Virus record (IMG/VR): IMGVR_UViG_3300042567_001420
From: a virus
Lineage: Duplodnaviria > Caudoviricetes
Direction: 5' to 3' (one strand)
DNA length: 64,000 nt
Below, one piece after another: positions 39,103 through 43,746 of this stretch. Position 1 is the first letter of the stretch. Each line of letters starts with the position of its first letter. Under the pieces are notes generated by a model. That model ran no database searches and was not told where the DNA came from. It saw nothing but the letters and a program-made list of their open reading frames with translations. Position numbers and translations under genes: made by a program.

Positions 39103-39552
39103 ATGTACACCAAAACCTACAAAGGCCGATTTAGGGTATTGAATCCTGCAAAATATAAAGGCGACATTACTACGGTAATCTATAGGTCTCTATGGGAACT
39201 TAGATTTATGAAATGGTGCGATCAGAGCCCCTCAATTATAGAATGGGGATCTGAGACCGTTATAATACCCTACGTGTCCCCGGTTGATAAAAAGGTGCAC
39301 AGATATTTTGTAGATTTTTATATAAAAGTTAAATCTAAGAACAATACGACTGAGAAGTTCCTCATAGAAATAAAACCCGAAAAATTTACTAAACCGCCAG
39401 AAATCCCTAAAAAGAAAACAAAACGGTTTATTGACGAAGTTTTCCAGTACGGCGTAAATGAAGCTAAATGGAAAGCAGCTTTTGAATTTTGTACTGATCG
39501 AAATATGAAATTTATAGTATTAACCGAAAAAGATTTAGGATTATCCAAGTAA
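39103..39552 (+). CDS. gp4: Head completion protein gp4
   Basis: YKGRF...NPAKYKGD...YRSLWE, WGSETVIIPYVSPVDKKVHRYFVDF, VNEAKWKAA. Confidence 0.93.
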   Translation: MYTKTYKGRFRVLNPAKYKGDITTVIYRSLWELRFMKWCDQSPSIIEWGSETVIIPYVSPVDKKVHRYFVDFYIKVKSKNNTTEKFLIEIKPEKFTKPPEIPKKKTKRFIDEVFQYGVNEAKWKAAFEFCTDRNMKFIVLTEKDLGLSK

Positions 39553-40112
39553 TGGCCACCAACGCGTTTGAAACAATTAGGCTAAATGCCGCCGGAGAAG
39601 AAAAGTCATACCAATGGTATAGGCAGCAAATTGCATCTTTGGGCAAACTAACAAATACTAATCAGATATTAAGAGATACAAAAATTGCTACTAGACTTAT
39701 TCCTGGCGAAATGTACTTGTTTTATTATGACCCTAAGTACAAAGATACTTTGCCTTACTATGATAGATTGCCGCTAGTATTACCTTTTAGAAAAGTACCA
39801 GATGGCTTTTATGGAATAAACCTACATTATTTACCATATATGATGAGATTCAGAATATTAGGGCTTTTATCAGACTACTCCACGGGTAAAGATGAAGATA
39901 CTAGAATTCAATTATCTTGGAGACTATTAAATGCCTCTTCAAGATTACATCCGGCAAAATTCGCAGTAAAACACTATTTAAATTCACACGTCAAATCTCG
40001 TCTTTATAAAATACCCTATACCGATTGGGTAACTGCTTCTCAATTACCTGTTGAAAAATTTGTCGGTGCACAGAAAACTAAAGTCTGGCAAGACTTTAAC
40101 AGAACACTATAA
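39552..40112 (+). CDS. gp2: DNA end protector gp2
   Basis: PGEMYLFYYDPKYKDTLPYYDRLPLV, FYGINLHYLP, VKHYL..HVKS. Confidence 0.93.
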   Translation: MATNAFETIRLNAAGEEKSYQWYRQQIASLGKLTNTNQILRDTKIATRLIPGEMYLFYYDPKYKDTLPYYDRLPLVLPFRKVPDGFYGINLHYLPYMMRFRILGLLSDYSTGKDEDTRIQLSWRLLNASSRLHPAKFAVKHYLNSHVKSRLYKIPYTDWVTASQLPVEKFVGAQKTKVWQDFNRTL

Positions 40113-40120
40113 AGGACATA

Positions 40121-40744
40121 ATGTCAAACTTTAGTATATCAAATTTTATTTCGGAAGTAAATATTAGAGGTTTAGCTAGACCCAATAGATTTGAAGTATT
40201 TATTCTCCCGCCTTCCGGATTGGGGGCTTTCACTGGTAGCGGAAGACTTGTTAGTTTATTGTGCGAGTCTGCTAGTTTACCTGCAATGAGCGTATCTACA
40301 AAGCCTTTTAGAATCTACGGAGCAAGTTATCAAAGACCAGTATCTTCAGAATTTAATGGAGATGGAATAACTTTATCTTTCTATATAGATAACAAAATGG
40401 AAGTTAAATCTTTCTTTGACGCTTGGATGTTCAAAGTTGTCAATCCAAATTCTTTTAATGTTAGCTATCAGCAGGAATATGTGTCGCAAATTAAAATAGC
40501 GCAATTAGATGAACAGAATAATGAAAGTTATTCAGTATATCTAGAAGATGCATTTCCCAGAGCAGTTAATATGTTAGATTTAAATATGGGGTCGACAAAT
40601 CAAGTACACAAATTAAATGTTACATTTGCGTACAGAAGATGGTTTCCCGAAAGCGAATTATTAAACAGAATAAATTTTAACCCCAACTTATCTGATTTTG
40701 CAGCTGGGGCAGCATCCGGGGCAGTACTCGGACAATCTTTTTAA
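40121..40744 (+). CDS. gp54: Baseplate tail-tube initiator gp54-like
   Basis: GLARPNRFEV, CESASLP, LEDAFPRAV, KLNVTFAYRRW (gp19 paralogue). Confidence 0.8.
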   Translation: MSNFSISNFISEVNIRGLARPNRFEVFILPPSGLGAFTGSGRLVSLLCESASLPAMSVSTKPFRIYGASYQRPVSSEFNGDGITLSFYIDNKMEVKSFFDAWMFKVVNPNSFNVSYQQEYVSQIKIAQLDEQNNESYSVYLEDAFPRAVNMLDLNMGSTNQVHKLNVTFAYRRWFPESELLNRINFNPNLSDFAAGAASGAVLGQSF

Positions 40745-40758
40745 CATAGGAAATTATT

Positions 40759-41454
40759 ATGCCTTTACCAATATTAGAAACGCCAAACTATGAATTGATG
40801 TTACCATCAACCGGCAAAAAAATTAAATATAGACCATTTCTAGTTAAAGAATATAAAATTCTATTAACAACAATGGAAGCAGAAAGCAAAGAGATATCTA
40901 GAATAGTTACAGAACTTGTAGATAATTGTACATTTAAAAAATTAGATATTGATAAATTAGCAAGCTTTGATATAGAATATTTATTCTTAAACATACGAGC
41001 AAGGTCTATAAGCGAAACTACTGATATCATTATTAATTGTGACTGCGGAGAAAAAATAGACTACAGTATGGATTTAACAAAGATTGAAGTCGATAAGCCA
41101 ACTGGTATAGAAAACAAAATTATGTTGACTGATGATATCGGGGTCGTTATGCGATATCCTAGATTTGACGAAATATTAGATATATACGAAAACTCAAATT
41201 CCGATAAAATTTTATCATTAGTTGGAAATTGTATAGATGCCGTTTATACGAAGACGGAATACTTTGATAAGGATACTTATTCTGAAAAAGAATTAGATGA
41301 TTTTGTTAGTTCTTTCTCAAAGAATCAATTTGACCTATTGGAAAAATTCTTTGAGAAATTGCCAAGAATTGTGCATCATATTGAAGCCGATTGCCCGGCA
41401 TGTGGTAAGAAAAATACAGTGGATTTAGAGGGCCTGCAAAATTTTTTCGTCTAA
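40759..41454 (+). CDS. gp26: Baseplate hub assembly protein gp26-like
   Basis: MPLPILETPNYELMLPSTGKKIKYRPFLVKEYKILL, FDIEYLFLNIRARS, CPACG...LEGLQNFF. Confidence 0.9.
   Translation: MPLPILETPNYELMLPSTGKKIKYRPFLVKEYKILLTTMEAESKEISRIVTELVDNCTFKKLDIDKLASFDIEYLFLNIRARSISETTDIIINCDCGEKIDYSMDLTKIEVDKPTGIENKIMLTDDIGVVMRYPRFDEILDIYENSNSDKILSLVGNCIDAVYTKTEYFDKDTYSEKELDDFVSSFSKNQFDLLEKFFEKLPRIVHHIEADCPACGKKNTVDLEGLQNFFV
41442..41448 (+). promoter_or_regulatory. Candidate -1 ribosomal slippery heptamer T TTT TTC
   Basis: In-frame AAT TTT TTC GTC TAA at the end of gp26; the -1 frame stays open to 41636. Confidence 0.65.
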
Positions 41455-41636
41455 CTCTTTCTCATGATAGTTTAGTGAATTATTATCAATTGAATTTCTC
41501 GTTAATGCAGCACCATAAATACTCATTAACAGAAATTGAAAATATGATTCCATGGGAAAGAGAAATTTATGTGTCTATGTTGATTAATTATATTGGTGAG
41601 GAAAATCGTAAAATACAAACTAAGAAACAGGGGTAA
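41445..41636 (+). CDS. gp51: gp51-like baseplate hub assembly segment (not in the ORF track)
   Basis: FRLTLSHDSLVNYYQLNFSLMQHHKYSLTEIENMIPWEREIYVSML; first ATG at 41505 has no SD. Confidence 0.85.
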   Translation, partial: FRLTLSHDSLVNYYQLNFSLMQHHKYSLTEIENMIPWEREIYVSMLINYIGEENRKIQTKKQG

Positions 41637-41641
41637 TTAAT

Positions 41642-42199
41642 ATGTTAGGTAATAATAAAACTGAAGAAGTTATAGAAGAAAAGAAAAAACCAGATGAAGA
41701 CTGGATGACAAAAAAATGGCGTCCTATGATGGCAATGATGTATATGTCTTGCTGTTTGTTTGATTTTGCTCTATTTCCAATCATGTTCACAATTGTGCAG
41801 TTCTGGGAAGTCCAAGCTGCTAATGACGCATTTAGACAATGGGTACCTATTACCCTACAAGGTGGTGGATTATTTCACGTAGCGATGGGTGCGGTATTGG
41901 GTGTTTCTGCGTATGGTAGAACACAGGAAAAAGTTGCAGGCGCATCAAATGTCTCAACCAGCTTTTCATCAGGTGGGGTACCAACGCCTAACCTATCTTC
42001 GGCAGTACCGTCATTCTCTGGCGGAGGATTTAACTCCCAAACACAATCAACCGGCTTTGGACCTCAGACTCAATCATTCGGATCTTCTCAGTCATTTAAT
42101 ACTACAGAAACAACAACTGAATTTAGCATGAGTCCCGCTTCGGTCGATAATAGTTTTGGAAACGCACCGTCCAAACCAATAGTTAGAAGACCTGTATAA
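41642..42199 (+). CDS. Putative holin (GTA 3TM holin-like)
   Basis: DWMTKKWRPMMAMMY + hydrophobic segment, LFHVAMGAVLGVSAYGRTQEK; low-complexity Ser/Thr tail. Confidence 0.7.
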   Translation: MLGNNKTEEVIEEKKKPDEDWMTKKWRPMMAMMYMSCCLFDFALFPIMFTIVQFWEVQAANDAFRQWVPITLQGGGLFHVAMGAVLGVSAYGRTQEKVAGASNVSTSFSSGGVPTPNLSSAVPSFSGGGFNSQTQSTGFGPQTQSFGSSQSFNTTETTTEFSMSPASVDNSFGNAPSKPIVRRPV

Positions 42200-43746
42200 T
42201 GGCAACTAAACAACCAGTTAATTCTTCGGGTATTATGACTTCATTAATGCAGTCCTTTACCGCAACAGCTAAAGATAAAGATATTGAAGCATTAAAAAAA
42301 TCAATAGATAATTTATCTAAGATTTTAGAACGACGAGTAGGTAAAGTTAAAAAATCTTCTGAGTCTGCCGAGGATAAGGAAGATAAACAAAGAACACTGG
42401 TTGGTGATATTAAAGATTTTGGTAAAGGATTTATAACCCCATTTGCCGAAACAAAAAAATACATATTAGGGGGTAAGAATACAATGCCACCTAATATGAA
42501 TTTAAAACCGGCAGAAGGTGAAGAAAAATCTGAAAATAAAGTATTAACATTATCGCAATTTAAAAATGAATTGCTAAAGATGAAAAATACAGAATTGGAA
42601 AAGAATATACTTGCGGAAGTGGTTGTAATACGAAAAATTGTTGCGCAAAAAGCTGGCTATGGTGATAATAAAAGTACAATACCTGCATTATCGGGTTCAG
42701 GGTTAGAACCTAACACCGAAGAAGATAAACAAAGAGATAGAGAACTTTTGGCAGAAGCAATTGCAAAAAAATTAAAGGGTTTAGCAGACAATAATAAAGG
42801 TGGTGGGATAATTTCTAGTATACTTGAAGCCCTAGGATTAAAAGGATTGTTAGATGGCGGCCCAGGCAAAGGCAGAGGCAAAGGCAGAGGCAAAGGTGGC
42901 AAAGTGCCACCGGCAGGCGGAAAAGTTCCAGGAAAAATGGGGTTGGGTGGAAGATTATTAGGTCCGGCTAGTCTTGCATTGGGTGCGTATGAAGCAAGTG
43001 AATTTTTAGGTGAAACTGAGTATGGCAACAATATGTCAAAAGGTGCAGGCAAGGCTGCAGAGACGGCATTTAGAGAAAATGTTGCCCCCACTATCGATCC
43101 TGTTAAAACGGGCATGACTCCTGAACAAGCAAGAAATGCTTTAGGGGGAAGCAATCGAGATATAGAAAAATTAGGTGGAAGAGAAGCTCTATTAAAAATA
43201 GCTAATACTGATTTTGAAAGTTCCAGTTCTTCTAAAGATTTAAAAGAACAAATTAGAATAAAAGAACAAAGTCTTAAGACATCTGGGCCGATGCTTAATG
43301 CAGAATATAGAGATAAGTTGCAAACAGATATAGACACGTTGAACAAACGTATTCCTACTGCAGATATGCCAGACCAAATGGCGGCAGAGACCGCAAGATT
43401 AAATCGTTATTCCAATATTGAAACAAAACAATCATCTGCAACTGCAGAAAATGTTGTGCCAAAACAAGATCAATCGTTAGAATCAACTCTTGCCAATAGT
43501 TTTAAAAATGAAACTCTTAAACAATTAAAAGCTGCTACAACCGGCGACCAAAAAATAGATTTATTAAACCAATTAGAAAATGTAAATATGGATCTAAAAG
43601 ATTCTATGGGATCTATGTCGCAAATACTTGCACCTATGATATCGAATAGAACTGTAGATAACAGTACCCAACAATTTGTAACATCTCCTCCAAGACCATA
43701 TCCAAATTCAAACGGAGTTGATCGTTGGCAAGATAAGCGGTACTAA
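42199..43746 (+). CDS. Tape-measure / gp29-like hub protein
   Basis: 515 aa, helical with a Gly-rich patch; follows the gp26/gp51 genes. Confidence 0.55.
   Translation: MATKQPVNSSGIMTSLMQSFTATAKDKDIEALKKSIDNLSKILERRVGKVKKSSESAEDKEDKQRTLVGDIKDFGKGFITPFAETKKYILGGKNTMPPNMNLKPAEGEEKSENKVLTLSQFKNELLKMKNTELEKNILAEVVVIRKIVAQKAGYGDNKSTIPALSGSGLEPNTEEDKQRDRELLAEAIAKKLKGLADNNKGGGIISSILEALGLKGLLDGGPGKGRGKGRGKGGKVPPAGGKVPGKMGLGGRLLGPASLALGAYEASEFLGETEYGNNMSKGAGKAAETAFRENVAPTIDPVKTGMTPEQARNALGGSNRDIEKLGGREALLKIANTDFESSSSSKDLKEQIRIKEQSLKTSGPMLNAEYRDKLQTDIDTLNKRIPTADMPDQMAAETARLNRYSNIETKQSSATAENVVPKQDQSLESTLANSFKNETLKQLKAATTGDQKIDLLNQLENVNMDLKDSMGSMSQILAPMISNRTVDNSTQQFVTSPPRPYPNSNGVDRWQDKRY
42865..42903 (+). 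repeat. 12-nt in-frame tandem repeat (GKGR) in the tape-measure-like gene
   Basis: ggcaaaggcaga ggcaaaggcaga ggcaaaggtggc aaa. Confidence 0.8.

Follow-up and report, generated by a model that had tools for sequence, protein, structure and literature searches.

We analysed a 64,000-nucleotide (nt) stretch of DNA from an uncultured freshwater T4-like phage (IMG/VR record IMGVR_UViG_3300042567_001420; referred to as the window), in which the 3' end of a gp26-like gene very probably carries a programmed -1 frameshift site. Slippage on the heptamer U UUU UUC would yield, from a single gene, a short gp26-like protein of 231 amino acids (aa) and a gp51-like form of 292 aa. An earlier note on this DNA had proposed that one gene makes a short and a long chaperone in this way, and our sequence comparisons support the proposal through a conserved heptamer, the lack of a conserved own start for the extension and the colinearity of the predicted long form with T4 gp51. 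While the note regarded the frameshift as a property of 'this lineage', we found the arrangement to be common to nearly all sampled T4-like phages outside the T4 group. DNA matching the source phage was present in lake metagenome runs from 2016 to 2024. The junction comprises the following features:

40759..41454, + strand: gp26-like gene in the 0 frame, short product of 231 aa and 26.7 kDa (PF12322 T4_baseplate, E-value (E) 2.1e-63; phrog_150, E 1.2e-66)
41428..41432, + strand: GAGGG, a Shine-Dalgarno-like run in Glu-Gly codons, 9 nt 5' of the heptamer; possible stimulator
41442..41448, + strand: slippery heptamer T TTT TTC in the X XXY YYZ register
41452..41454, + strand: 0-frame stop codon TAA, one codon past the heptamer
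41448..41636, + strand: -1 frame extension of 62 codons plus TAA, corresponding to the gp51-type C-terminal tail (phrog_634 'baseplate hub assembly catalyst', E 2e-29)
40759..41636, + strand: predicted frameshift product of 292 aa and 34.2 kDa, with 230 residues from the 0 frame and 62 from the -1 frame
41505..41507, + strand: ATG at codon 22 past the slip site, the only start candidate kept within the window clade; it serves the alternative of a separately translated tail

In the proposed mechanism, UUU would occupy the P site and UUC the A site, and both Phe-tRNAs would re-pair one base back on UUU UUU, after which the ribosome would read CGU (Arg) and continue for 62 codons. The two proteins would share their first 230 residues, and the long one would add the tail, the conserved C-terminal module of T4 gp51. 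In the window clade, the GAGGG run, the invariant spacing to the stop codon and about 15 nt past the heptamer with invariant third positions may assist the slip. That the slip occurs, and with what efficiency, as well as the binding partners of each part of the protein, is what we infer.

Conservation of the heptamer at the gp26 junction

The gp26-like gene ends in CAA AAT TTT TTC GTC TAA; the heptamer is in register with the 0 frame, and the -1 frame stays open up to position 41636 (stop-to-stop 41409-41636, reading FFRLTLSHDSLVNYYQLNFSLMQHHKYSLTEIENMIPWEREIY...), both as described in the earlier note, whose sizes of 292 aa for the fusion and 231 aa for the short form were likewise confirmed. 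The predicted fusion junction reads ...LEGLQNFF/RLTLSH..., with NTVDLEGLQNFFR as the junction tryptic peptide, and the 0-frame C-terminal peptide predicted for the short form is NTVDLEGLQNFFV. Contigs of three DNA runs, which may themselves be the source of the window DNA, span the junction without an insertion or deletion.

We compared this junction across 193 loci that include the 3' end of a gp26 homologue. These loci fall into four clades with 33-100% protein identity; among them are the window clade (68-100% identity), a second freshwater clade (~35-38%) and marine cyanophages (~40-45%), and the cultured phages in the set are P-SSM2, S-SSM7, S-PM2, KVP40, RSP15, Marzo, K352 and T4. Seven of the loci were supplied by a metagenome scan, and a query with RSP15 returned RSP15 alone. 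The sequence T_TTT_TT(C/T) is located exactly one codon before the stop codon in 191/193 loci, representing 118 distinct junctions (188 loci with TTTTTTC and three with TTTTTTT), and the spacing between heptamer and stop codon is exactly one codon in every heptamer-bearing locus (191/191). The heptamer and its -1 register are hence retained among homologues, as the frameshift proposal in the earlier note called for, and the relative frame never varies. That 191 separately assembled loci share this arrangement argues against an assembly error in the T run. Only T4 and Vibrio phage K352 lack the heptamer. In T4 gp26, the two Phe residues (FF) are encoded by the non-slippery TTC TTT; K352 (locus L026, 1900-1960) reads CTT TTC AAG TAATG and is the only non-T4 relative seen without a heptamer.

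Conservation at the junction extends to wobble positions. The codon preceding the run is always NNT (AGT, AAT, GAT, TCT, GGT or GCT) across 66 distinct junctions, while T occupies 73% of such sites in the same genes, and the first Phe codon is always TTT, compared to 70% elsewhere in these genes. A conserved Phe-Phe motif cannot explain the NNT wobble, because the preceding residue varies among six amino acids.

The same fusion could also arise by transcriptional slippage, with RNA polymerase adding one U in the T6 run and no slip of the ribosome. The homopolymeric site and the presence of runs of 6-7 T in relatives are compatible with this. However, the run is short and held in a fixed codon register with the stop codon exactly one codon later in all heptamer-bearing loci; register and spacing therefore match the pattern of a tandem tRNA slip, which polymerase slippage does not require. 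Known slippage sites of bacterial RNA polymerase moreover need runs of about 8-9 or more. We consider transcriptional slippage highly unlikely.

Known -1 frameshift sites offer a comparison for elements around the heptamer. In Escherichia coli dnaX, a -1 frameshift takes place on A AAA AAG and involves an upstream Shine-Dalgarno-like element and a downstream hairpin. The window junction resembles dnaX in the predicted tandem slip on a heptamer and in the position of GAGGG, which lies 9 nt upstream at about the dnaX spacing. The Glu codon of this run is GAG in 10/10 window-clade junctions and in 40/61 overall, compared to 19% GAG in the same genes. Of the relatives, only the cyanophages (L001, 1545-1575; L002, 1718-1748) further share with dnaX a hairpin, 5-8 nt 3' of the heptamer, the stem of which (ATGGCTCA...TGAGTCAT in P-SSM2) shows a compensatory change in S-SSM7 (ATGTCTCA...TGAGACAT) and includes the annotated gp51 ATG. 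In contrast to dnaX, the window clade has no significant downstream structure. A second difference lies in the outcome, as the shifted frame of dnaX stops at once and gives the shorter product, whereas the shifted frame of the window would give the longer one. Within 41442-41462, the third positions of the first seven -1 codons after the slip site are invariant among 10 distinct window-clade sequences of 68-100% identity, while later codons vary at this position, which may reflect an RNA-level constraint on the spacer or a small-sample effect.

Reading of the -1 frame and the case for a separate tail

The -1 frame is under coding selection upstream of any start codon. From FF onward, the -1 peptides of all clades align without gaps, with the consensus FFR-L/I/V-x-x-x-H-D/E-x-L-x-N-Y-Y-x-x-N-F-x-L-M-Q-H-H-K-Y-S-L-x-E-x-E-x-M-x-P-W-E-R. 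Codon 3 of this frame, which overlaps the last gp26 sense codon and lies upstream of every candidate start, encodes Arg in 64/66 distinct relatives. All four CGN codons are used for it (31, 22, 7 and 4 times), and the same bases give V, G, A, D or E in the 0 frame. As Arg is kept while the 0-frame residue varies, selection at this position reads the -1 frame. The 19 codons between the heptamer and ATG 41505 show a corresponding pattern: in the window clade, entropy by -1 codon position is 4.98, 4.2 and 12.85, and synonymous and non-synonymous differences amount to 184/153 in the -1 frame, compared to 59/291 in the 0 frame and 47/286 in the +1 frame. Two other clades display the same third-position pattern over these codons.

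In line with the earlier note, none of the possible starts of the extension (GTG 41475, TTG 41490 and ATG 41505) follows a Shine-Dalgarno sequence, as no AGGA/GGAG-type purine-rich run is visible upstream; the gp26 start is preceded by AGGA and the gp54-like start of the gene before it by AAGGA. Between 41409 and GTG 41475, the -1 frame contains no ATG, GTG or TTG. Among the relatives, no independent start of the gp51-like ORF (open reading frame) is conserved, with no start column kept before codon 35. Codon 22, equivalent to ATG 41505, is ATG in 51/66 distinct relatives, the others having Ile or different codons, and GTG 41475 is replaced by GTA in relatives of at least 96% identity.

These data bear on the alternative that the tail is made as a small protein of its own, of 44 aa when started at ATG 41505 or 53 aa when started at GTG 41475, either independently or by coupling to gp26 termination, with no fusion and with the T run kept for Phe-Phe. 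In favour of such a protein, ATG 41505 is retained throughout the window clade, and databases annotate 'gp51' as an own gene of 55-65 aa in cyanophages. Many relatives have a start that overlaps or adjoins the stop codon, with an ATG two to three codons past the slip site (TAATG, TGATG, TAAGTATG). In K352, which has no heptamer and one PF12322 gene, the tail ORF begins at an ATG overlapping the stop codon; some lineages may thus manage with a free tail peptide. FF is itself a conserved protein motif, also kept in T4 gp26 with non-slippery codons, which accounts for part of the T run. On the other hand, the 19 codons 5' of ATG 41505 are under -1 coding selection and align to T4 gp51, the only characterised carrier of the tail, where it resides on a full gp26-like domain. 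The Arg at codon 3 and the NNT wobble, invariant across six amino acids, likewise go beyond what a downstream start or a protein motif would explain, and the candidate starts themselves are poorly kept: ATG at codon 22 is Ile or Val in 13-15/66 relatives, GTG 41475 is lost in near-identical ones, and neither is preceded by a Shine-Dalgarno-like run. Taken together, a separately translated tail appears unlikely as the explanation for the window. In lineages with an ATG near the slip site, both routes, frameshift and free tail start, may operate. The window clade and the Sf-CH1b-like cyanophages have no ATG two or three codons past the slip site; for them, the choice is between a frameshift and a 44-aa peptide that is missing a third of the conserved module.

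Besides the retained ATG 41505, the starts close to the slip site in many relatives, K352 and the FF motif, further observations weigh against a programmed frameshift. TTTTTTC occurs 40 times in the window compared to 40.7 expected, so that the heptamer alone is at chance level; it exceeds chance by its in-register conservation in 191/193 related loci and not by its frequency in the window. RNA evidence consists of a single 171-nt lake metatranscriptome contig (run X20) that covers 41484-41646 with one difference (G to A at 41595); it is a weak hint of tail ORF transcription, not proof, and stops short of the slip site. The upstream GAGGG is not universal, with GAAGG in many relatives of the L018 clade. 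Downstream RNA structure in the window is not significant (z -0.57), and no consensus downstream structure was found in the window clade or the L018 clade. Lastly, the identity of a 515-aa gene downstream as tape measure is positional, because its comparison with gp29 and with family profiles gave nothing significant.

The tail ORF is open over 58-68 codons in all complete loci, and its homologues comprise 1049 representatives. Some of their called N-termini lie 16-25 residues upstream of the slip site, some at the slip site and some at codon 22, a divergence of the kind that a frame without a real start would produce. The absence of an own start codon and of a purine-rich Shine-Dalgarno-like run could also be accounted for if the tail were an untranslated remnant of an ancestral gp51 gene. 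Given the open frame in all complete loci, the number of homologues and amino acids that are strongly kept while codons vary synonymously, we regard a remnant as so very unlikely on conservation that it carries almost no weight.

Rare natural in-frame fusions occur and show the junction predicted for the frameshift product. One of them, P0197, contains PF12322 followed by the tail (...NFF/LLILSHESL..., ...NFF/LLILSHESLIDYY...); it was seen as protein only, and an assembly error in the T run is possible. A different context for the tail was noted in P0154 (203 aa, from the representative library), in which a tail peptide, MAHIDLESYF..., is in frame with a metallo-beta-lactamase-like domain (PF12706, E 1.4e-4), representing either a real fusion or a chimeric assembly.

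Relation to T4 gp26 and gp51 and to lambda G/GT

In T4, genes 26 and 51 are separate, as the earlier note stated: the phage has two PF12322 genes, which are divergently transcribed. T4 gp51 (249 aa) matches the whole PF12322 profile at residues 1-201 (E 7.7e-55), which makes it a complete gp26 paralogue. Residues 201-244 of T4 gp51 align to the window tail from the first residue of the tail onward (E 3e-7). On phrog_150, the window gp26 ends at position 232 and the tail matches 235-276. From this profile order and the gp51 alignment, it follows that T4 gp51 is colinear with the predicted frameshift product, and T4 gp26 with the product made without a slip. A single PF12322 gene each was found in P-SSM2, S-PM2, KVP40, RSP15, Marzo, K352 and a complete relative of 202,665 bp, which has terminal repeats and a gp26 of 69% identity and stands in for the window phage beyond the 64 kb. 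With one PF12322 copy, phages outside the T4 group have no source of a gp51-like long form other than this junction. The short form of the window is thus homologous to gp26 and the predicted long form colinear with gp51 including its tail, but T4 uses two diverged paralogous genes and no slippery site, whereas the window phage and nearly all sampled non-T4 relatives have one gene plus the signal.

T4 gp26 and gp51 are hub assembly chaperones, and gp51 is described as essential, of unknown function and absent from the particle (PMC3004832). By analogy to lambda G/GT and to the genetics of T4 genes 26 and 51, both forms made by the window phage would serve as chaperones in the assembly of baseplate hub and tape measure and would not remain in the finished virion. 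The tape measure would be held by the shared domain, and the tail would bring in a further component of the hub or tube. Two Cys pairs, CxC (residues 94-96) and CPxCG (213-216), occur in gp26 of the window, KVP40, RSP15, Marzo and T4; the cyanophages P-SSM2, S-SSM7 and S-PM2 lack the second pair, which suggests that the zinc-ribbon-like element has decayed in their proteins.

An AlphaFold2 model of the window gp26, built from a 58-sequence alignment with a predicted local distance difference test (pLDDT) score of 87.2, was compared to 48,161 representative solved chains (VIA-align). The highest Z values were obtained for 3fgx (7.5), 2ob9 (HK97; 7.1), 3klu (YqbN; 6.7) and 5ir0 (5.6), followed by 4.2 for the next chain. 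All four align to gp26 residues 1-90, and their Z values are middling when taken singly. The structures 2OB9, 3KLU and 3FGX are tail assembly chaperones (PMC9603447), and 5IR0 is a chaperone of the Vibrio satellite PLE1 (PMC12987554). We assign a chaperone-like fold to the N-terminal domain of gp26 because four chaperones fill the first four places, which is not a chance pattern. Foldseek with the same model gave no match in PDB or AlphaFold DB Swiss-Prot. Residues 91-231 of the model weakly resemble small zinc ribbons, in agreement with the two Cys pairs.

Both the fold of residues 1-90 and the composition of T4 gp51, a gp26-like domain plus tail, lend further support to the lambda G/GT analogy drawn in the earlier note. 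Levin, Hendrix and Casjens in 1993 and Xu, Hendrix and Duda in 2004 reportedly described lambda gpG/gpGT and a -1 frameshift conserved among the tail assembly chaperone genes of long-tailed phages. As in lambda, there would be two products with a common N-terminal part, an X XXY YYZ heptamer near the end of the upstream frame and a -1 extension without an own start; the locus adjoins a tube-family gene and, if the 515-aa gene is the tape measure, lies upstream of that gene, and the modelled gp26 N-terminal domain appears to have the fold of solved tail assembly chaperones. Unlike lambda G, the protein belongs to the PF12322 family, and a Pfam scan gives PF12322 only and no lambda-type chaperone family; tail assembly chaperones are too diverged for sequence searches. 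The window protein is also larger, with a second domain that carries the two Cys pairs next to the chaperone-like one, and exactly one codon invariably separates the window-type slip site from the stop codon. Finally, the T4 pair acts in hub assembly, before tube growth (PMC3004832).

Based on these comparisons, we lean towards the -1 frameshift being ancestral to the whole T4-like group. T4 genes 26 and 51 would then be a duplicated, 'hard-wired' version of it and the long-missing counterparts of lambda G/GT, with the shared domain holding gp29 and the tail recruiting a hub or tube partner, and T4 would no longer be an exception. The mechanism would not be new in kind, since it is of the well-known G/GT type, here in the T4-like group. 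We found no report of a gp26-gp51 frameshift in the literature searched, which excludes subscription journals, and none of nine database records examined annotates slippage by a joined coding sequence. What gp26 and gp51 do in hub assembly is still described as unclear, even though T4 serves as the reference phage for contractile tails. Should the long form arise by frameshifting in the window phage and in hundreds of further T4-like phages, the T4-like group would join those with the conserved tail-chaperone frameshift, and gp26 and gp51 would gain a definite and testable function as the T4 equivalents of G and GT. The short genes called 'gp51' or 'hypothetical protein' in numerous records from cyanophages, vibriophages and metagenomes would then be mis-annotated, and T4 would provide a natural case of a frameshift replaced by gene duplication.

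Gene order and the candidate tape measure

The gp26-like protein is covered over its full length by PF12322 (profile positions 2-218 of 219). Its gene has a gp54/tube-family gene upstream and, beyond the tail ORF and an intervening 185-aa membrane protein gene, a 515-aa gene without a family match downstream:

39103-39552, + strand: gp4-like head completion gene
39552-40112, + strand: gp2-like DNA end protector gene
40121..40744, + strand: gp54-like tail tube family gene, directly 5' of the gp26-like gene (phrog_45 'tail tube', E 1.2e-39; PF23849, E 5.9e-7)
41642..42199, + strand: membrane protein gene (185 aa) that separates the tail ORF from the 515-aa gene (PF11351 GTA_holin_3TM, E 2.7e-5; phrog_3427, E 1e-4)
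42199..43746, + strand: 515-aa candidate tape measure in the gp29 position, identity positional only

The upstream family phrog_45 is also the phrog of T4 gp54. A tape-measure-like gene, which the earlier note had placed one gene downstream, is represented by the 515-aa gene; counting the tail ORF as a gene of its own puts it two genes away. Its protein shows no significant similarity to T4 gp29 or any family. The 515-aa protein has no match in Pfam or PHROG, and BLASTP against T4 gp29 gave a non-significant E of 0.027. PF25671, the T4 tape measure family, matches T4 only and not the relatives. The single lead came from the Atlas (0.88 to a T4_Tape_measure cluster). A complex prediction for gp26 with the 515-aa protein scored 0.00, which counts neither for nor against binding.

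The 185-aa ORF does not resemble the ORFs located after gp51 in P-SSM2 and KVP40, and the C-terminal half of its protein is rich in Gly, Ser, Thr and Gln. Further upstream, the gp4-like head completion protein also matches a TnsA-like endonuclease N-terminal domain (PF08722, E 2.1e-20).

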